Positions 4,564 through 59,266 of a stretch of 64,000 bases of DNA are shown here, in pieces. Below the pieces are notes generated by a model. The model was not told the DNA's origin, ran no database searches, and saw only the letters and a list, made by a program, of their open reading frames with translations. The position numbers and the translations under genes were made by a program. Each line of letters opens with the position of its first letter. Position 1 is the stretch's first letter. Source of the DNA: an uncultured Bacteroidales bacterium (GTDB lineage Bacteria > Bacteroidota > Bacteroidia > Bacteroidales > CAIWKO01); assembly GCA_903913285.1 (NCBI GenBank), contig CAIWKO010000060.1:55898-119897 (forward strand), read 5' to 3'.

Positions 4564-4694
4564 GGAAGATGGAAGACCGAAGATGGAAGCACGAAGAGGA
4601 AGACCGAAGACGGAAGACGGAAGACCGAAGACGGAAGACCAAAGACGGAAGCACGAAGTCGGAAGACCGAAGTCGGAAGACCGAAGTTGGAAGG
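4564..4694 (+). repeat. Degenerate heptamer tandem array (GGAAGAC/CGAAGAC)
   Basis: About 18 imperfect 7-bp units starting immediately after the feoB stop codon. Confidence 0.9.
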
Positions 4695-4765: not shown

Positions 4766-4945
4766 ATGACACAATTTATCATAACACTGGTTGTAGTTTT
4801 TGCTGCGGTTTTGGCTGCGGGGTACCTGATTTATAAACGCTTTAAAAAGAAAGCGAAAAAAGCGGATTGTTGTAACGGATGTTCGGAGGAATGCGGAGAT
4901 TGTGCTTTTTATAGGGAGGTTGGCAGGAAGAAAAATGAGTATTGA
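4766..4945 (+). CDS. FeoB-associated Cys-rich small membrane protein (59 aa, not in ORF track)
   Basis: Manual translation MTQFIITLVVVFAAVLAAGYLIYKRFKKKAKKADCCNGCSEECGDCAFYREVGRKKNEY*: one TM helix, basic patch, Cys cluster, downstream of feoB. Confidence 0.85.
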   Translation: MTQFIITLVVVFAAVLAAGYLIYKRFKKKAKKADCCNGCSEECGDCAFYREVGRKKNEY

Positions 4946-5259
4946 ATGTTGATGACGTTGCTCCTAATTAACATGGGATATTTTAATATTTATGAACCTT
5001 GACCAAAAGAAAGATCTTAAGTGAAAGAATAACATTAGTGCAACCATCATTGAAATGTCTATTGCTTGAAGTTCGGTTTGCAAATCAATTGAAATTTGAG
5101 AGAAATTTTCTTCATCCTGCCATCATGTCAAACAATACAACTTTCCAGTCTGAACAAACGCCCTAAAATTGCTCCTTTTTCCACATAAATTTCATTCTTT
5201 TCACCCCAAAAACATTCATTTCTTTGCCAATTAAAATATATTGCTGTAAAATAGCATGT

Positions 5260-5552
5260 TAAAGTAAAATTGGAAGCAGCTAAAGTAAAATTGGAAGCTT
5301 TTAAAGTAAAATTGGAAGCAATTAAAGTAAAATTGGAAGCCAAAAAAGCATTCTTGAACGAGTTAATACTAAAATTGGATGCATCTAAAGTAAAATTGGA
5401 AGGCACTGAAGTAAAATTGTAAGGCACTAAAGTGAAATTGCAACCTCATATGTATCCTGGAACACTGCTAAAGTCTTCTGGAAAGGTGCTAAAGTAAAAT
5501 TGCAGGCTGCTAAAGTAAAATTGCAAGCCGCTCACGCATTCTTGGAAGGCGG
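5260..5552 (+). repeat. 21-bp tandem array, consensus TAAAGTAAAATTGGAAGCNNN (~14 units)
   Basis: Units at 5260, 5281, 5302, 5323 ... 5490, 5511. One 20-nt unit (5449-5468) and several diverged units. Confidence 0.9.
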
Positions 5553-5708
5553 TTACGTGAGTCATATTTTTGACTCAAGTAATATTTCTTCCCAAAAAAG
5601 TAAAATTGCAACCAAAAATACCATTCCCGGAGCAAAACCTCAAAAACATCTCTGTGTCCCAATTTACTTGCTACCTGTTACCTTTTACCAGTTACCTGTT
5701 ACTTTAGT

Positions 5709-6872
5709 TCACTTCTTCAAAGGATGCGCGTACGTTATTACATCGTCGGCGGTTATTTTCTGGTCGCAGAGGATGATGAGGCGTTCGACGACGTTGCGCA
5801 GTTCGCGGATGTTGCCGGTCCATTTTATTTTTTGAAGTTGCTGCATGGCGTCGGGTTGAACTTTTAGCATAGGCCGACCCTGACTTTGACATATTTCGGC
5901 CACAAAATAATCGACCAGCAAGGGAATGTCGTCCATACGATCGTTAAGCGACGGGACTTCGATCAGGATCACACTCAAACGGTGATAAAGGTCTTCACGG
6001 AAAGTGTTTTTGGCGATTTCTTGTTCCAGATCTTTGTTGGTGGCAGCAATAACGCGAACGTTGACGGGAATATCTTTTTCGCCGCCGACGCGGGTGATCT
6101 TGTTTTCCTGCAAGGCACGCAGCACTTTAGCCTGCGCGGAAAGGCTCATGTCGCCAATTTCGTCGAGAAAGATGGTTCCGCCGTCGGCTTGTTCGAAATC
6201 GCCTTTGCGCTGTTTGATGGCAGAGGTGAATGAGCCTTTTTCGTGACCGAAAAGCTGGCTTTCGATGAGCTCGGAAGGGATGGCAGCGCAGTTGACCTCG
6301 ATGAAGGGATAGGAAGAGCGTTTGCTTTTTTCGTGGAGCCAATGCGCCACGAGTTCTTTGCCGGTTCCGTTGGCGCCCGTGATGAGAACACGAGCATCGG
6401 TTGGAGCCACGCGTTCGATCATGTCTTTGATGCGTTTGATAGCCATTGATTCGCCAATCATTTCCCAGTTTTTGCTGACTTTCTTTTTGAGAGCCTTGGT
6501 TTCGGTGATGAGTGTTGATTTGTCGAGGGCGTTTCGCAAGGTGATGAGCAAACGGTTGAGATCTAAAGGTTTCGCGATGAAATCGTAAGCGCCGAGTTTG
6601 ATGGATTCGACTGCGGTGTCGATATTGCCGTGACCCGAGATCATGATGACCGGGGTGTCTGTTTTTAGCATTATGGCTTTCAACACCTCGATGCCGTCCA
6701 TTTTCGGCATTTTGATGTCGCAAAGTATGACGTCGTATTTTTCTTTTTCGACGAACTGCAACCCTTCACTTCCGTCGCAGGCATCATCTACCTGGTATTT
6801 TTCGTATTCGAGAATTTCGCGTAGGGTGTTGCGGATGCTTTTTTCGTCGTCGATTACTAAGATCTTTGCCAT
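5709..6872 (-). CDS. Sigma-54-interacting response regulator (NtrC/NtrX-like; receiver + AAA+, no evident HTH)
   Basis: Receiver ILVIDDE/CDIKMP, Walker A GANGTGKE, ESQLFGHEKGSFTSA, LFLDEIG-like Walker B, FREDLYHRL and WTGNIRELRN. Confidence 0.92.
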   Translation of the reverse strand: MAKILVIDDEKSIRNTLREILEYEKYQVDDACDGSEGLQFVEKEKYDVILCDIKMPKMDGIEVLKAIMLKTDTPVIMISGHGNIDTAVESIKLGAYDFIAKPLDLNRLLITLRNALDKSTLITETKALKKKVSKNWEMIGESMAIKRIKDMIERVAPTDARVLITGANGTGKELVAHWLHEKSKRSSYPFIEVNCAAIPSELIESQLFGHEKGSFTSAIKQRKGDFEQADGGTIFLDEIGDMSLSAQAKVLRALQENKITRVGGEKDIPVNVRVIAATNKDLEQEIAKNTFREDLYHRLSVILIEVPSLNDRMDDIPLLVDYFVAEICQSQGRPMLKVQPDAMQQLQKIKWTGNIRELRNVVERLIILCDQKITADDVITYAHPLKK

Positions 6873-6989
6873 TGTTTAGGGGTTTAGCGGTTTAGCAGTT
6901 TAGCAGTTTAGACTATTAGATTTTAGGTTTAAGATTGAGAGTTTAAACTGTCGATTTTTTTCTTCTGAATTCTTACTTCTGAATTCTTA

Positions 6990-8666
6990 TTATCCTTTTA
7001 GTTTGCGGTATTTGATTCTGCCCGGCCCCACATCGCCCAAGCGTTTCTTTTTGTTTTCTTCGTATTCGGAATAGGAGCCTTCGAAAAAGTATACCTGAGA
7101 GTCGCCCTCGAAAGCGAGAATATGGGTTGCGATGCGGTCGAGAAACCAACGGTCGTGGGAAATTACGACGGCACAACCGGCGAAATTTTCGAGACCTTCT
7201 TCCAAAGCGCGAAGGGTGTTTACATCGATATCGTTGGTAGGTTCATCGAGCAGGAGGACGTTGGCTTCCTGTTTGAGCGTGAGCGCCAGATGCAAGCGGT
7301 TGCGCTCGCCACCCGACAACACACCGGCTTTTTTGCCCTGGTCGGTGCCGCTGAAGTTGAAACGCGACACATAGGCCCTTGAGTTCATGGTGCGGTTGCC
7401 AAGTATGATGTTATCGAGGCCATCGGAAATTATTTCCCAAACGTTTTTTTCGGGATCGATCTCAACATGGGCCTGGTCGACATAGGCTATTTTAACGGTT
7501 TCGCCAATTTTAAAGGTTCCGGAATCGGGCTTTTCCAAGCCCATCATCATGCGGAAGAGCGTGGTTTTGCCGGCGCCGTTCGGACCTATAACACCGACGA
7601 TACCTCCCGGAGGAAGCATGAAGGATAGGTTTTCGTACAAGAGTTTATCGCCATAAGCCTTGGAAACTTTTTGAGCATCGATGACCACATCGCCCAAACG
7701 AGGGCCGTTGGGGATAAATATCTCGAGTTTTTCTTCTTTTTGTTTTACATCTTCGTTCAACATGCTTTCGTAGGAATTCAAACGTGCCTTGCCTTTGGCA
7801 TGACGTGCTTTGGGCGCCATGCGAACCCATTCGAGTTCGCGGGCGAGGGTTTTGGCACGTTTGCTTTCGGTTTTTTCTTCCTGCTGCAGGCGTTTGGTTT
7901 TTTGTTCGAGCCACGAAGTATAGTTTCCTTTCCAGGGAATACCTTCGCCGCGGTCGAGTTCGAGAATCCAACCGGCAACATTATCGAGAAAATAGCGGTC
8001 GTGGGTAACAGCAATCACGGTTCCTTTATACTGCTGCAAATGATGTTCGAGCCATTCGACCGATTCGGCATCCAAATGGTTGGTTGGCTCATCGAGCAGC
8101 AAAATGTCGGGCTCGGAAAGCAGGAGGCGGCACAAAGCCACCCGGCGACGCTCGCCACCGGAAAGATTTGCAATATTTACATCGCTTTCGGGACAGCGCA
8201 AGGCATCGAGGGCACGTTCGAGTTTGGTATCGAGTTCCCAGGCTTCGTGCTGGTCGAGCAATTCGGTGAGTTGCCCCTGACGGTCGATAAGCTTGCTCAT
8301 TTCATCGTCGGTCATGGGTTCGGCAAACTTGTTATTCACTTCTTCGTATTCTTTCAGCATGTCGACAATGGGCTGAACGCCTTCCTGAACGATCTCTTTA
8401 ACGGTTTTTGAATTATCGAGTTTGGGTTCCTGTTCGAGATAACCAACGGAATAGCCGGGCGAAAAAACCACTTCGCCGTTGAAAGAGGTTTCGATGCCTG
8501 CAATGATCTTAAGCAGGGTTGATTTACCGGAACCGTTGAGACCGATGACCCCAATTTTGGCACCATAATAAAATGAGAGATAAATATCTTTGAGAACCTG
8601 TTTGTTTGGCGGATACGTCTTGCTGACGTTCACCATCGAGAAAATTATTTTTTTATCGTCGGCCAT
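6990..8666 (-). CDS. ettA: Energy-dependent translational throttle protein EttA (ABC-F)
   Basis: Two ABC domains; LSFYYGAKIGVIGLNGSGKST, WILELDRGEGIPWKGNYTSWLEQK, ELEWVR; 558 aa. Confidence 0.95.
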   Translation of the reverse strand: MADDKKIIFSMVNVSKTYPPNKQVLKDIYLSFYYGAKIGVIGLNGSGKSTLLKIIAGIETSFNGEVVFSPGYSVGYLEQEPKLDNSKTVKEIVQEGVQPIVDMLKEYEEVNNKFAEPMTDDEMSKLIDRQGQLTELLDQHEAWELDTKLERALDALRCPESDVNIANLSGGERRRVALCRLLLSEPDILLLDEPTNHLDAESVEWLEHHLQQYKGTVIAVTHDRYFLDNVAGWILELDRGEGIPWKGNYTSWLEQKTKRLQQEEKTESKRAKTLARELEWVRMAPKARHAKGKARLNSYESMLNEDVKQKEEKLEIFIPNGPRLGDVVIDAQKVSKAYGDKLLYENLSFMLPPGGIVGVIGPNGAGKTTLFRMMMGLEKPDSGTFKIGETVKIAYVDQAHVEIDPEKNVWEIISDGLDNIILGNRTMNSRAYVSRFNFSGTDQGKKAGVLSGGERNRLHLALTLKQEANVLLLDEPTNDIDVNTLRALEEGLENFAGCAVVISHDRWFLDRIATHILAFEGDSQVYFFEGSYSEYEENKKKRLGDVGPGRIKYRKLKG

Positions 8667-8684
8667 TATTTGAGAATATGATTA

Positions 8685-8721
8685 GCGCCCTTCGACTACG
8701 CTCAGGGTAAAATTAGTAATT
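8685..8721 (-). repeat. Dispersed REP-like element, copy 2 (inverted)
   Basis: GCGCCCTTCGACTACGCTCAGGGTAAAATTAGTAATT is the reverse complement of 4716-4752. Confidence 0.8.
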
Positions 8722-28620: not shown

Positions 28621-28886
28621 TTCGAATAGTTATTGATTTTTAGCTTGTAGGCAAAATTTGTATGAAACATTGATATAATTTTTATTCTACCTATTCAGTA
28701 GGTGCAATCCATGTATCCATTGGCCAAGTTTCCAAACTTCCCACAAAAATATTCTTTAGTTTCCAATCACATACAAATTTCACCTCAAATATATAAATTT
28801 ATTCGATTGAAAATTATTTTTTCAAAAAAAATCATATTATTTTCTCAAAAAAAAACAACGATTAAAGCTTTAAAAAACATAAAAGT

Positions 28887-29138
28887 CAAATTGAAAACAA
28901 CGATTATCAAAATCTGAACAATGGATTACAAAATCTGAACAACGACAATCAAAATTATGACTATGGATGACAAAAATATGACAATGGATGACAAAATCTG
29001 AACAACGACAATCAAAATTATGACAATGGATGACAAAATTATGACAATGGATGACAAAATGGAGTCAACGACGATCAAATTCTGAACAACGACAATCAAA
29101 ATTACGACAATGGATGACAAAATGGAGTCAACGACAAT
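28887..29138 (+). repeat. 21-bp tandem array A1 (CAAAAT-NNNNN-CAA-YGRNNAN type), 12 units
   Basis: Units such as CAAAATCTGAACAACGACAAT, CAAAATTATGACAATGGATGA and CAAAATGGAGTCAACGACAAT in exact 21-bp register. Confidence 0.92.
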
Positions 29139-29277
29139 CAAAATGTAAAAAATCAAAACAAAAAAACAAATCAAGTTGTTAATTATCAATATAATAATAA
29201 ATAAGTCAACCAATTTACTTCTTAACAAATTAACCAACGAACTCAAAAATCACACCCCTAAAACAAAAATAACAACA

Positions 29278-29550
29278 CACTACCTCGTCCGAACGACACT
29301 TCACCTCGTCGGAACGACTACGTTTCTCGTCCGAACGACACTATTCCTTCTCCGGACGACTCTGTTCCTCTTCCGAACCGCACTATTCCTTCTCCGGACA
29401 ACACTATCCCTTCTCCGGACGACACTATCCCTTCTCCGGACGACACTATCCCTCTTCCGGACGACACTATCCCTTCTCCGAACGACTCTGTCACTCGTCC
29501 GAACGACTCTGCACCTTTTTCAGACTACATCAAACCTTTTTCAAACAACA
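29278..29550 (+). repeat. 21-bp tandem array B1 (CTATCCCTTCTCCGGACGACA type), ~13 units
   Basis: Continuous 21-bp register; translates as LSLLRTT heptads in ORF 29176..29628. Confidence 0.92.
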
Positions 29551-46864: not shown

Positions 46865-47305
46865 CATCGTGAACGAGAAATATGACATCGTGAATAAGAA
46901 TTACGACATCGTGAATAAGAAATATAACATCGTGAATAAGAAATATGACATCGTGAATAAGAAATATGACATCGTGAATAAGAATTACGACATCGTGAAT
47001 AAGAAATATAACATCGTGAATAAGAATTATAACATCGTGAATAAGAATTATGACATCGTGAATAAGAAATACGACTGTGTGAATAAGAAATACGACTTCG
47101 TGAATAAGAATTATGACATCGTGAATAAAAATTACGACATCGTGAATAAGAAATATGACATCGTGAATAAGAAATATGACATCGTGAATAAGAAATATAA
47201 CATCGTGAATAAGAATTATAACATCGTGAATAAGAATTATAACATCGTGAATAAGAATTATGACATCGTGAATAAGAAATACGACTGTGTGAATAAGAAA
47301 TACGA
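46865..47305 (+). repeat. 21-bp tandem array B2 (CATCGTGAATAAGAAWTAYRA), 21 units
   Basis: Uninterrupted 21-bp register; translates as IVNKKYD heptads. Confidence 0.97.
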
Positions 47306-47519
47306 CTTCGACGATTTTAGTTACTATTACAACCCCATTCGGCAGCAAGCTCCGCCTCCTTTGGCTTATTTATGCCATCCGTGGCTTGTGGCTACAAATA
47401 AACAAACCCGGCATCAAATTCCTTACTTTCAGGAAAATAATATTCAATTTTGTGCGTTTTCTAAAAGAATAAACGCCATAACTTTTATTAAATAATTGCC
47501 AAATCAAAACTATACTCCG

Positions 47520-56070: not shown

Positions 56071-56172
56071 CCTTTTAGTCTTTTAGGTGTGTAGACTTTT
56101 AGGTAATAGGTAACAAGTAATAGTTATAGTCTTCGGTCTTCCAACTTCTAACTCCTAACTTTTAACTTTAGG

Positions 56173-56283
56173 CACTTTAGGCACCTGCCCGACTGAAGCC
56201 GTTCAGGCGGGCTTTAAGTACTTTAGTTCACTTTAGGCACCTGCCCGACTGAAGCCGTTCAGGCGGGCTTTAAGTACTTTAGT
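56173..56283. repeat. 56-bp tandem duplication with REP-like hairpin CCTGCCCGACTGAAGCCGTTCAGGCGGG, embedded in heptamer repeats
   Basis: 56173-56228 and 56229-56283 are identical over 55 bp; flanked by ACTTTAG-type heptamers. Confidence 0.9.
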
Positions 56284-56292
56284 CACTTTAGT

Positions 56293-57327
56293 TCACTTCT
56301 TCAACTCTTCCAATTCTTTCTCCAGCGATAAAATGCGGTCGGCGAGGTTTGGGAGTTTGCGGAACAGCACATACGAGCGTAAAAAATCTTTAATATCGAA
56401 AGCTATATAGCCCTGCAACAGCGCTCCTTCTTCGGTCACGGTTTTGGCAACTCCCGAGCGTGCCTGAACTTTCACATTATCGGCTATCGAAATATGCCCC
56501 ACTATGCCAACCTGCCCGCCTATCATGCAGTTTTTGCCGATCTTCACCGAGCCTGCCACACCCACCTGAGCCACGATGATGGAATTTTCGCCCACTTCAA
56601 CATTATGAGCTATCTGTATCAGGTTATCGAGTTTGCAGCCTTTGTGTATGATGGTCGAGCCCAGGGTGGCACGGTCGATGCAGGTGTTGGCGCCAATTTC
56701 AACATCATCTTCAATAATAACGTTGCCTATTTGGGCCACTTTTTTATGAGTCAGGTCGGCTTGCTGGGTAAAACCGAAGCCGTCGGCGCCTATCACCACC
56801 CCCGAATGCAAAATGCAGTTGCGCCCCACCACGCTGTCCGAATAAACGCTCACCTGTGCATACAGCGTGGTGTTGTCGCCTATGCTAACGTTGTCGCCCA
56901 CGTAGCTCAGCGGGTAGAGTTTGGCGTTGTTGCCTATAACGGCATTTTCGCCCACGAAAGCCTGTGCACCTATATACACGTTGCTGCCTATTTTGGCCGA
57001 AGGCGAAATGTAAGCCTTGTCCGAAATGCCCGTTTTGTTGAGTTTCATCTGATTGTATAGCTCCAGCAAGGTGGCGAAAGCAGCATACGCGTTGTCAACG
57101 CGCACCAGGGTAGCCTCAACGGGGTGTTCGGGCACAAAATCGCGGTTCACTATAACAATGGCGGCCCGGGTGGTGTATATAAAATGCGTGTAGGCAGGGT
57201 TGGCCAAAAATGTGAGCGAATCCTCATCGCCTTCTTCTATTTTGGCCAGTTTCGAAACGGCTGTTTCGGGCTTGCCTTCTACGGTGCCGTTCAATACTTC
57301 GGCCAGTTGTTGCGCGGTAAATTTCAT
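56293..57327 (-). CDS. lpxD: UDP-3-O-(3-hydroxymyristoyl)glucosamine N-acyltransferase
   Basis: LTFLANP.Y, hexapeptide repeats, [19 protein letters not shown] and [11 protein letters not shown]. Start ATG 57327. Confidence 0.97.
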
Positions 57328-57790
57328 TTCAGCTATATTTTTTTCAGAAAACAAAGTTATAAAAACAACGACAAGTGGGAGGATTTATTTTTGATGGAGA
57401 AATTTTTAGAGAATTCAGAATTCAGAAGTAAGAATTCAGAAGGATTGAATTAGCTAAAAGCCATTACTTCCTACTTTTTTAACCACGGAAATACGGAGAA
57501 CACGGAGATACACAGAGAATTTATTTTGCATTCAAAAAAATTATTTTATTTTTTTAACAAAAAACTTGCATCACTTAAAATAATTTACGTTCTTTGTGTA
57601 TCATAAATTAAACCATATAAACCCGATGATCTATCGTTCTGATATATCATGTTCCGAAAGGCCTATTTCCGTAGGGGGGGGGGTATTTTATGGTTTTAGA
57701 TTCCAAATCTTTTTGTTTTAGTTCGTTTTTATTTCAAGAAATTTCTTTAAAATTTATTTATAGTCCATTTTCGACTGGAAGTGAAAACTA

Positions 57791-58151
57791 TTCGCACGAG
57801 TTGGGAAAGGGTTCGCACGGCCAAGGAAAGGGTTCGCACGGCCGGGGAAAGGGTTCGCACGGCCAGAGAAATGGTTCGCACGGCCGGGGAAATGGTTCGC
57901 TCACGGGACGATATGGTTCGCTCGTAGAACGATACCGTTCGCACGACCGGGGAAAGGGTTCGCACGACTCAGGAAAGGGTTCGCACGACTTGGGAGACCT
58001 CCGCACGACCAAGGAAAGAGTTCGCACGACTGAGGAAAGGGTTCGCACGGCCAAGGAAAGGGTTCGCACGAGTTGGGATGCCTCCGCACGACCGGGGAAA
58101 GGGTTCGCACGGCTGAGGAAAGGGTTCGCACGAGCCGGGAAAGGGTTCGCA
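57791..58151 (+). repeat. 21-bp tandem array TTCGCACG-N5-GGAAAGGG, 17 units plus a partial
   Basis: Conserved 16-nt core GGAAAGGGTTCGCACG with a variable pentamer (AGTTG, GCCAA, GCCGG, GCCAG, ACCGG, ACTCA, ACTTG, ACCAA, ACTGA, GCTGA, AGCCG); two 20-nt units. Confidence 0.96.
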
Positions 58152-58253
58152 GGGTTGGATATATACTTTGATTGGATGGAGGGATGTAGTTCTTGTTTAT
58201 TGAATGCTAATTATTTATAAACAATATTATTCACTTTAAAAAAAAATAAAGTT

Positions 58254-59222
58254 ATGGAAGATCAAAACATTTATTGGAGCGAAATGGAAAAAAGAATTGT
58301 TGGGTTGAAAAGTAACCCATTGTATTCGGCAGAAATAACCGGAACGGTTGCAACATTGGATTTTTTTACACGAGCTGAAGGCTATTTTAACGATAAGGTG
58401 AGCTGGCAACAGAAATTGGAAAAATCGTCGAAAGCGTATACGAAAGCAGGCGAGGCAAAGAAAGAGGAAGCCGCCCAGACTTTTAGTATTACGGCATCGG
58501 TAATGAAATCGTATGGCGAAAAAATTGGTGATGCCGATTTGATAGGCCTGAAATTGCTGACATTTTCGAAATTGCATAAGGAAAGTGTTACTGCACAAAT
58601 TGCTGATAATAATTATATTTTGGGTTTGATAGATGCTAATAAAGTTGCACTGGCAGATTATAAGATAGATGCAGCTTTTACGGCCAAGCTTGTTACGCTG
58701 AACAAGGATCTTGACCTGCAGACAAAATTGCCGCTGGACGTGGTGAAGCAACATGCCAATGATAAGGTTCAGTATGAGGATATGGAGAATACTTCGAAGA
58801 AATTTTATGATAAGGAGATGGACCCTTATATGAAAATTTATAAAATTACAGATATGGGTTTGTTTTTGGCTTATCTGGCGGCGCGGAAGGTGCGGCATCA
58901 TCATTTGAAACGAAAAGCGGTTGTGCCAGACCCGGAAACTATTACGGGAATACTGGAGTTGATGCTGCTGTTCAAAGCATCGATGGACCCGGCAGCAGGA
59001 GCCAGTTATGTGGTTACGGCACTGGGTATTTCGGATACGACGGATGAAGACGGGGAAGGCTATAATGACGAGTTGAAGCCCGGAACGTATCATGGAAAGA
59101 TTTCGATGGACGGCTATAAGGATATTGAGTTTGATTTTACGATAGAAGCAGGAAAAACTACAGCGTTGCAGTTTTTGCTGGAAGTGGCTAATGTGGCTCC
59201 GAGCGGAACGCCGGGGAGTTGA
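58254..59222 (+). CDS. Hypothetical protein: predicted alpha-helical N-terminal region plus C-terminal carboxypeptidase-regulatory-like (Ig/prealbumin-type) domain
   Basis: No signal peptide; amphipathic helical first ~215 aa ending FLAYLAARKV; C-terminal P..GA....TTDEDG....LKPGTY...IS.DGYKD......IEAGKTT...F.L. Confidence 0.75.
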   Translation: MEDQNIYWSEMEKRIVGLKSNPLYSAEITGTVATLDFFTRAEGYFNDKVSWQQKLEKSSKAYTKAGEAKKEEAAQTFSITASVMKSYGEKIGDADLIGLKLLTFSKLHKESVTAQIADNNYILGLIDANKVALADYKIDAAFTAKLVTLNKDLDLQTKLPLDVVKQHANDKVQYEDMENTSKKFYDKEMDPYMKIYKITDMGLFLAYLAARKVRHHHLKRKAVVPDPETITGILELMLLFKASMDPAAGASYVVTALGISDTTDEDGEGYNDELKPGTYHGKISMDGYKDIEFDFTIEAGKTTALQFLLEVANVAPSGTPGS

Positions 59223-59266
59223 TAGGCTTTTAGGCTATAGGCTGTAGACTTTTAGAAAAAAACGAT

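Follow-up and report, generated by a model that had tools for sequence, protein, structure and literature searches.

Iterons, as in P1, F and R6K, are direct repeats of ~17-22 bp that lie about two helical turns apart, in ~3-9 copies, beside the gene of the protein that binds them, and further arrays of the same repeat can occur elsewhere on the replicon. In type II parC/ParR systems, about ten tandem repeats of ~20 bp are found upstream of parMR (pSK41), and the gene product coats these repeats co-operatively and represses its own promoter. The direct-repeat operators of the AraC family have half-sites at intervals of 21 bp, which place the bound subunits on one side of the helix; such operators contain two to a few sites and are bound by a helix-turn-helix (HTH) protein. 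The wording "21-bp periodicity" is reportedly used in one paper (PMC3870299). Arrays of clustered regularly interspaced short palindromic repeats (CRISPR) consist of ~23-55-nt repeats and unique spacers of ~21-72 nt. Here, we describe a tandem array of 21-bp units that lies directly upstream of a gene for a 322-aa protein in an uncultured Bacteroidales bacterium. The window, that is, the whole stretch of 64,000 nucleotides that was analysed, corresponds to G000:C60:55898-119897, where G000 is the host genome (3.996 Mb, 70 contigs, 39% G+C). Positions given without a prefix are window coordinates; the prefix C denotes contigs of G000, and the prefix L denotes loci, mostly in other assemblies.

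The array and gene layout recurs in this lake bacterium and is shared by a number of relatives, which suggests a type of repeat-and-protein module that has not been described. An element, an array, a spacer of ~100 bp, a gene and a hairpin make up a conserved type of cassette that occurs about 40 times in the genome and carries genes of three unrelated families (A, B and C). At the window locus, the cassette consists of the following parts:

57499-57723, + strand: 225-bp element on the far side of the array, with an 89% identical copy at G000:C4:49423-49646 and a third copy at C26:47332-47522
57791-58151, no strand assigned: period-21 array, TTCGCACG-N5-GGAAAGGG, with a 16-nt core and a 5-nt variable block
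58152-58253, + strand: AT-rich spacer of 102 bp from the array to the ATG, the part nearest the array being partly alike in L139 (by eye)
58254-59222, + strand: family A gene, 322 aa, with a modelled helical N-domain (3-218), an RKVRHHHLKRK hinge (~211-221) and a transthyretin/CarboxypepD_reg-like sandwich (232-309)
59267-59409, + strand: 77-bp hairpin element, 1.9 copies, terminator-like, RNA fold z -9.96

Tandem Repeats Finder (TRF) gave the array a period of 21, 17.3 copies and 74% matches, and also detected a higher-order period of 83 within it (57937-58151). A parse anchored on CGC[AT]C resolved 17 units and a partial eighteenth, spaced by 21 nt except at units 10 and 14, where the spacing is 20 nt. 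Eleven different 5-nt blocks occur between CGCACG and GGAAAGGGTT, and units 6 and 7 are degenerate. The preliminary description of this locus had reported 17 units with a conserved core and 5-nt inserts in at least 11 variants, two 20-nt units that break the reading frame, and an AT-rich gap of ~100 bp followed by a co-oriented open reading frame (ORF) of 322 codons; each of these points was confirmed. The similarity that it had proposed to a second array, "B1" (29283-29507), was not upheld: the two units match at 10 of 21 positions, and this is the value that shuffled units give most often. GGA/GGG is frequent in the units of the 57791-58151 array, and the longest inverted-repeat arm within the unit is 3 nt. 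The sense-strand RNA of the array is less structured than shuffled sequences (z +3.15; 200 of 200 shuffles fold at least as well), and a sigma-70-like match is located upstream of the array, at 57554-57604. An ORF at 57690-58220 spans the array, and is regarded as a repeat artefact because the two 20-nt units change the frame. In another assembly, the window's own sequence (L213) carries 9.3 array copies rather than 17.3, through an in-register loss of 8 units, reflecting either a true length variant or an assembly collapse. In Logan contigs from four DNA runs, the array region was too fragmented to give a copy number. A run of ten G residues lies just upstream of the array (57677-57686), and the contigs of two other runs (X3 and X8) have 2 bases fewer at 57674, a possible homopolymer length variant.

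Among 5.8 billion proteins, the 322-aa protein has 33 close homologues, all unnamed, and a profile search of 1.84 billion representatives gave 270 matches at E<=1e-10, many of them full-length (~300-320 aa). By sequence reading, the protein has no hydrophobic N-terminus, in agreement with the earlier statement that it lacks a signal peptide. An AlphaFold2 model (predicted local distance difference test score, pLDDT, 88.6) shows residues 3-218 as twelve helices, followed by a hinge and by a beta-sandwich of seven strands (residues 232-309), matching the succession of helical region, basic/His patch and immunoglobulin (Ig)/prealbumin-like domain that had been read from the sequence. Foldseek matched the sandwich alone, to transthyretin-like/CarboxypepD_reg domains (e.g., 5aq0_B, TMt 0.86, root-mean-square deviation 1.6). 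The Pfam family CarboxypepD_reg (PF13620) scored 30.8 bits, below its 32.3 cut-off, and reached 35.8 and 63.8 bits in paralogues. As modelled, the C-terminal fold is a transthyretin-like domain, an assignment that says nothing about the whole protein. The hinge contains the motif RHHH(L/M)KR(K), in which RHHH(L/M)KR is invariant or nearly so in a set of 11; among 32 homologues, R211, H215, H216 and K219 are invariant, and V213, R214, H217, R220 and K221 are nearly so. The model places a conserved basic patch at the domain junction. Searches of Pfam, PHROGs, NCBIfam and PADLOC returned nothing above the cut-offs for families A, B or C, and tblastn found no family match in 72,556 plasmid records, 50,697 phage records, or viral contigs. 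A PDB profile match to the "tail protein" 9c2d_S (E 6e-8) was rejected as spurious: three weak stretches had been summed (i-E 0.073, 0.81 and 16), and Ig-like repeats were aligned to a region modelled as high-confidence helix. ESM Atlas returned unnamed clusters and a weak lead to DUF6261 (0.86). The homodimer prediction score (0.01) speaks neither for nor against a dimer.

A search with the 322-aa protein in its own genome, where gene calls are crude ORF/codon-usage calls, gave 12 matches, nearly all directly downstream of a TRF-listed array. An iterated search revealed 38 full-length family A paralogues (231-405 aa), 32 of which have a period-20-22 array within 600 bp upstream, typically at 80-290 bp; two of the six array-less paralogues are at contig ends. 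BLAST clustering assigns 39 members to family A, 29 of which are preceded by an array of at least 100 bp; among all other called genes, the count is 148 of 3173 (odds ratio 59; Fisher p 1e-29). This p-value is overstated, because the paralogues are not independent. The layout is shared by family B (~205 aa; array upstream in 9 of 15 members) and family C (~245 aa; 4 of 6). Pairwise hhalign comparisons among the three families gave probabilities of <=41%, and thus no support for common ancestry; judged by eye, B and C may nevertheless follow the plan of helical domain, hinge and sandwich. Taken together, the 42 gene-linked arrays are not skewed in base composition towards either strand of the gene (20 have more G than C, and 21 have more purines than pyrimidines). 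Additional small families of unnamed proteins, again without a signal peptide, were noticed just downstream of arrays (C35:69894-70781, C45:26546-26818, C36:232314-233045, C20:139955-140689 and C38:22870-23592; the C35 and C45 units are related). The cassette gene families probably number more than three.

The association extends to other genomes, for which gene starts were estimated from match coordinates, and where the sister-genome, named-genome and metagenome locus sets may overlap. Family A was found in 10 of 41 related genomes, namely G000, 8 of the 17 other genomes of the genus, and one genome of another family. In the sister genomes, a period-21 array lies upstream in ~18 of 21 evaluable homologue loci (L013, L021 and L036 being those without), and five more loci are cut by contig ends. 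An alignment-based scan of named genome records identified 14 loci in uncultured Bacteroidales and related metagenome-assembled genomes, most with upstream arrays (L145 and L147 have none, and the arrays at L150 are ~1 kb away), whereas a single-protein query over the same records found no confirmed relative. A metagenome scan gave 15 loci, and arrays were present at 11 of the 11 with enough upstream sequence, a count that includes three near-identical loci and the window's own sequence. The homologues at L021 (G013:C55:30225-31154; TGA) and L145 (2501-3175) contain an in-frame stop, and both are without an upstream array; they may be decaying copies. Because homologues do not generally lack arrays (32 of 38 paralogues, ~18 of 21 sister loci and 11 of 11 metagenome contigs have them), the proposal in the preliminary description that array and gene form one unit is supported. 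It needs to be broadened, however: the arrays are not private to the 322-aa protein, B and C share the layout, and most array loci have no A, B or C gene downstream.

The arrays and families A, B and C are lineage-specific and, in the genomes sampled, travel together among species of one genus. Array density was estimated from samples of 24-400 kb, counting loci of at least 100 bp. Among seven family A-positive genomes besides G000, six have 30-53 array loci per Mb (G013, 18 in 400 kb; G014, 5 in 100 kb; G004, 4 in 86 kb; G005, 3 in 100 kb; G017, 2 in 50 kb; G010, 2 in 37 kb), and G011 has zero (24 kb). The seven family A-negative genomes have 0-2.5 per Mb (G016, 1 in 400 kb; G009, 0 in 250 kb; G018, 0 in 400 kb; G002, G006 and G015, 0 in 100 kb each; G007, 0 in 46 kb). 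The 100-kb samples of G008 and G032, in each of which family A has a single weak match, contained no arrays, although the one family-A-like gene of either genome is nonetheless preceded by an array. Over the 18 genomes of the genus, families B and C occur in exactly G000, G003, G004, G005, G010, G011, G013, G014 and G017, a distribution nearly identical to that of family A. This co-occurrence indicates co-inheritance, and is no proof of dependence, because the positive genomes may be one clade. At individual sites, arrays can differ between species: the array upstream of pheT in G000 is absent from 11 of 11 sister loci examined.

Period 21 is sharply preferred in G000. TRF returned 349 rows of period 21, and 19 each of periods 20 and 22, with 82 and 51 rows at the multiples 42 and 63. 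Merging of these rows yielded 306 arrays (46 kb in total), and 165 loci contain 100 bp or more of repeat; the median copy number is ~10, and the longest array has 26.8 copies. The period is exactly 21 in 162 of 168 arrays of >=100 bp, and 21 bp corresponds to two turns of B-DNA. Unit sequences are nearly all different between arrays, and in many arrays the variation is spread over the unit instead of being confined to one block. The arrays do not code for protein: for 106 of the 168, no gene call covers 10% or more of the length, and 57 overlap an ORF call by more than half, where 51 of the ORFs are made by the array itself and 6 are short and junk-like. The 165 loci lie between tandem (79), divergent (46) or convergent genes (23), or at contig ends (17). 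The G+C content of the arrays is 41%, compared with 33% for all intergenic DNA. Inverted repeats with arms of >=4 nt occur in 79 of 158 units (null, 57.8); per-unit hairpins were set aside as a general feature, given that this excess is mild and that the unit of the 57791-58151 array has no such arms. Arrays without adjoining genes of families A, B or C were also found within the window, and these gene-less arrays belong to the same genome-wide class of 165 loci, as had been anticipated:

46865-47310, no strand assigned: array of 21.2 copies, unit CATCGTGAATAAGAAATATGA, solo, without an adjoining family A, B or C gene
28886-29507, no strand assigned: two adjoining arrays (28886-29150 and 29283-29507), flanked by divergent genes, solo
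5260-5532, no strand assigned: arrays at 5260-5440 and 5483-5532, flanked by convergent genes, solo

Other repeats accompany this class. Period-7 and period-14 repeats are also abundant in G000 (59 and 60 TRF rows), with units such as GGAAGAC (17.7 copies) and AGAATTC (4.6 copies) and window examples at 4564-4686 and 57410-57441. A heptamer run directly follows the family A stop codon at several foreign loci (L140:3437-3556, L141:3439-3525 and L146:3431-3470). An interspersed element of ~40 bp, at L039:1513-1554 in the array-pheT interval of G000:C10, recurs with 80-97% identity at six other G000 sites, and is also present in G005, G013 and G017. An 18.6-copy period-21 array at G000:C69:4332-4721 lies 167 bp upstream of a 1267-aa ORF (4888-8691), the N-terminus of which we take to resemble a Cas12a-type protein. 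The 17 loci at contig ends include C15:1-256, C4:401-743, C29:170-396 and C63:19837-20399, and some pairs of ends share one unit. Because arrays break short-read assembly, the array counts are lower bounds, and some of the "pairs" may be one locus.

Comparison of units between species revealed conservation at some loci. The window and L139 units are identical at 17 of 21 positions, while the N-domains of the two proteins are 58% identical. The L139 consensus also reads TTCGCACG-N5-GGAAAGGG, with its low-information block at the same unit positions as in the window, and L164 likewise shows the window's core (17 of 21) and low-information block. Other unit pairs agree at 16 of 21 (L143 and L144) and 17 of 21 (L140 and L216) positions. 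A match at 16 or more positions arises in only 2 of 12,403 pairs of shuffled units, and the DNA of the housekeeping gene pheT is 69-75% identical between these species, indicating that the core is under constraint at such loci. Within G000, units also recur at unlinked loci: 53 unit pairs are alike at 16 or more of 21 positions, compared with 2 in the 12,403 shuffled pairs, and the unit of the 57791-58151 array is found again at C67:52126-52557 and C6:29044-29502. Of 21 unit-sharing pairs tested, 9 have no flank homology and 12 have short homology beside the array.

These features would be accounted for if the array were a row of phased recognition sites on double-stranded DNA, with one site per two helical turns, each comprising a contacted core of 16 bp and an uncontacted spacer of 5 bp. 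The reader would be sequence-specific and most likely the protein of the neighbouring gene, perhaps acting through its invariant basic/His hinge. By coating its own upstream region, the protein could regulate the gene that encodes it, or mark the locus; the arrays with the same core (C67:52126-52557 and C6:29044-29502) would then be additional sites that it recognises, or orphaned copies. We tentatively favour the prediction that the array is a row of duplex-DNA sites read by the adjacent protein, while placing it somewhat below an even chance; binding of the array by the 322-aa protein is plausible. A broader proposal, which we consider doubtful, is that dozens of paralogues with an unseen helical fold each read a private 16-bp word in their own array and in matching arrays elsewhere, that this specificity diverges fast after duplication and is fixed between orthologues, and that the three families, together with over 150 arrays, have been gained or lost as a block between species of the genus. 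The word is preserved in orthologues and altered in recent paralogues, a pattern that is expected of interacting pairs that avoid cross-talk, and that fits rapid array replacement equally well.

Several observations weigh against reading by the adjacent protein. Foldseek detected no recognisable nucleic-acid-binding fold in the 322-aa protein, and the helical domain alone (pLDDT 88.1) has no PDB match (best E 0.6, TM <=0.37). Three unrelated families share one layout, and therefore reading of its own array by each protein would require three separate families, none with an assigned function, to be readers. Moreover, at 122 of the 165 loci, the array is followed by none of the A, B or C genes and has ordinary genes as neighbours, 23 loci lie between convergent genes, and each kilobase of intergenic DNA contains 0.29-0.38 array loci, with little difference between divergent, tandem and convergent regions. 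Within G000, the co-variation of unit with protein that the preliminary description had proposed as a check was not seen (Spearman rho 0.06, p 0.27, 378 pairs), and paralogues that are 95% and 86% identical share 13 of 21 unit positions, while their flanks are still alike. Unit pairs alike at 16 or more positions are linked-linked in 1 case, linked-solo in 21 cases and solo-solo in 28 cases, the shares expected by chance being 6%, 38% and 56%. Linked-solo pairs are thus no commoner than under random pairing, and solo arrays therefore cannot be called trans sites of the gene-linked arrays. In particular, the 122 loci without these genes and the fast turnover of units among paralogues weaken the array-binding interpretation.

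The arrays might instead be cis-acting DNA elements that are read by a shared host factor or act through DNA shape alone, for instance as an upstream activating or insulating element, a loading site for a nucleoid protein, or a copy-number tuner of expression, with the A, B and C genes as the commonest cargo that does not touch the array. This would fit the presence of three unrelated families as well as ordinary genes downstream of arrays (pheT-, pyrG- and gcvP-like by reading of the N-termini), the missing DNA-binding fold in the Foldseek results, and the strict 21-bp period, which keeps the helical phase whatever the unit. The in-register loss of 8 units at L213 is also in line with such a role, but could be an assembly collapse. 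A shared factor leaves unexplained, however, why the 16-nt core is kept between species with the variable block at the same positions, and why units differ almost completely between loci; at the 23 convergent loci, moreover, there is no promoter to serve. We regard a shared factor as unlikely. The same can be said of the possibility that the arrays are without function, either as products of duplication or slippage in 21-bp steps, or as decaying remains of a mobile cassette, in which case solo arrays would be those that had lost the gene. An array density that is nearly proportional to intergenic length in all three kinds of region, the patchy distribution among species of one genus, the fast unit turnover among paralogues, the absence of the pheT-upstream array from the 11 sister loci, and the absence of the cassette segment from G013 and G005 are all compatible with this explanation. 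The short flank homology in 12 of the 21 unit-sharing pairs is as would be expected for duplicated modules, and 5' and 3' elements are common to family A and B cassettes. On the other hand, the remaining 9 pairs lack such homology, and without selection an array would not be expected to retain its 16-nt core between species that are only ~70-75% identical in housekeeping genes. We know of no mechanism that acts as a 21-bp ruler, which also counts against arrays without function. No transposase, integrase or phage gene turned up beside the cassette, although no search was aimed at them, and the family has no match in the phage, plasmid and viral-contig collections.

Somewhat lower still is our estimate for a role of the array as RNA, transcribed either within an extended 5' leader or as a separate repeat RNA, where the single-stranded 21-nt units would serve as a platform for the adjacent protein or another RNA-binding protein, as in sponge RNAs with many copies of a short motif. 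The unusually unstructured sense RNA would leave the units exposed, and the GGA/GGG-rich units, the sigma-70-like match upstream of the array, and the heptamer repeats directly 3' of the stop codon in several homologues are consistent with this role. However, an exact step of 21 nt is natural for duplex DNA and meaningless for single-stranded RNA, and the 42 gene-linked arrays lack the strand-composition bias that a one-strand function would predict. Among the sequencing runs found to contain the locus, none is an RNA run, Rfam gave no match at gathering score or at E<=1, and pairing of the unit with its own mRNA region, tried as a candidate mechanism, showed no excess complementarity. Two further interpretations carry almost no weight. 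A degenerate or miniature CRISPR-like array, with the 5-nt blocks as spacers, would account for the alternation of a conserved repeat with a variable block, but is refuted by the repeat and spacer geometry: next to a 16-nt core, the 5-nt block is too short for a target to be specified, and the preliminary description had likewise argued that the inserts are too short for CRISPR spacers. In addition, one genome holds 165 arrays with different "repeats", and in many of them the variable positions are scattered. The absence of cas genes that had been claimed holds for the neighbours, an LpxD gene and the gene of a type IX secretion system (T9SS)-tail protein, and PADLOC gave no match to the 322-aa protein; no scan for cas genes was made over the remainder of the window. 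It is comparably improbable that the array is, or is what remains of, a gene for a heptad-repeat peptide (21 nt being 7 codons). Coding would be suggested by the ORF at 57690-58220, which passes through the array, but is excluded on frame, which the two 20-nt units change. Furthermore, a stop-free frame is expected by chance for most 21-mers, the array-spanning ORFs are array-made (51 of 57 have <240 non-array nt), and arrays occur in either orientation to their neighbours.

The remaining parts of the cassette and its setting were also characterised. In the copy of the 225-bp element at C4:49423-49646, the order of element, array and gene is kept, and the cargo is a family B gene. Rfam has no match for this element, and its RNA fold is ordinary (z -0.21); for the window as a whole, Rfam 15 gave no match at gathering score, and none at E<=1 within 57380-58260. 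The spacer at 58152-58253 likely carries the promoter and leader of the 322-aa gene. The hairpin element (66-77 nt) was found at 15 sites in G000, 10 of which are directly 3' of family A or B genes (by reading). According to Pfam, the neighbours of the 58254-59222 gene are the LpxD gene and the T9SS-tail (Por_Secre_tail) protein gene, and the cassette, within a 201-kb contig, has chromosomal lpxD on one side and an HD-domain gene on the other. Comparison of window positions 56293-63761 with G013:C2:76081-78891 and G005:C302:1286-4122 revealed that the distance from lpxD to the HD-domain gene is 5.2 kb here, compared with 657 bp in G013 and 505 bp in G005. The extra segment holds the cassette, the T9SS-tail protein gene and three small genes. 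Since lpxD and the HD-domain gene are nearly adjacent in G013 and G005, the cassette occupies a variable segment. Just downstream of lpxD, a 56-bp repeat (56165-56291; 2.3 copies, 95% matches) contains a GC-rich hairpin, GCCCG...CGGGC, and similar 21-mers containing GCCCGnnnnCGGGC occur at C9:66094-66155.

If the partner proteins read the arrays, each such genome would hold a natural library of dozens of protein/DNA-word pairs, with every site repeated 10-27 times, built on a fold without a solved relative. Such a library would be an accessible system for the evolution of specificity after duplication, and a possible source of new programmable binders. Should each paralogue indeed read a private word, this would amount to an undescribed nucleic-acid-binding fold with naturally evolvable specificity, and to an undescribed layer of genome organisation or regulation in Bacteroidota. 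Even without a partner-specific reader, about 1% of the genome consists of 21-bp arrays of unrelated sequence, which is unexplained, and these arrays are confined to some species of the genus and are co-inherited with three unassigned protein families. The tendency of the arrays to break short-read assemblies also matters for the binning of lake Bacteroidota.

The literature searched, which did not extend to supplements and subscription journals, contained no description of 21-bp arrays with partner genes, and each of the known systems resembles the cassette in some respects and departs from it in others. TAACTGA-type intergenic heptamer repeats are described in Beggiatoaceae, Cyanobacteria and a few Bacteroidetes, in the parts of the source available (PMC4679880). 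As described there, they are likewise abundant, lineage-specific, intergenic, patchily spread and of unassigned function, but they consist of one 7-nt unit in short sets near start codons, rather than hundreds of 21-nt units in long arrays, and the same parts of the source describe no comparable partner gene (PMC4679880). Minisatellites, or variable-number tandem repeats, are similar in being non-coding tandem repeats of 10-100 bp, and in a copy number that may vary here too (9.3 and 17.3, where assembly collapse is possible); here, however, one unit length is sharply preferred, partner gene families are present, and the core is conserved between species. CRISPR arrays share the alternation of a conserved repeat with a variable block, whereas the whole unit here is 21 nt with 5-nt blocks, no cas genes adjoin it, and there are many repeats per genome. 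Integron cassettes have an attC recombination site at their 3' end and lie in a row beside an integrase gene; here, a 66-77-nt hairpin is shared 3' of family A and B genes, but the cassettes are dispersed rather than set in a row. Unlike AraC-type operators, the arrays have 10-27 sites and no HTH protein. The parC/ParR systems are closer, with tandem repeats directly upstream of the gene; in the present cassettes, a single gene is followed by a hairpin, there is no gene for a ParM/ParA-type nucleoside triphosphatase beside the array, the modelled fold is a helical bundle with a sandwich rather than a ribbon-helix-helix, and many chromosomal copies exist. The likeness to iterons and Rep lies in the period of 21, the 17 units and the distance of 102 bp from the gene. 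In contrast to iterons, the present arrays have 10-27 copies, are chromosomal, with ~40 cassettes and ~120 solo arrays per genome, and have no match in the plasmid and phage collections, and the 322-aa protein has no Rep family match (Pfam, NCBIfam), no winged helix, and no PDB match for its helical domain. The iteron/Rep and parC/ParR systems are the nearest analogies to this arrangement of array and gene, although the protein and the replicon exclude the present cassettes from both.

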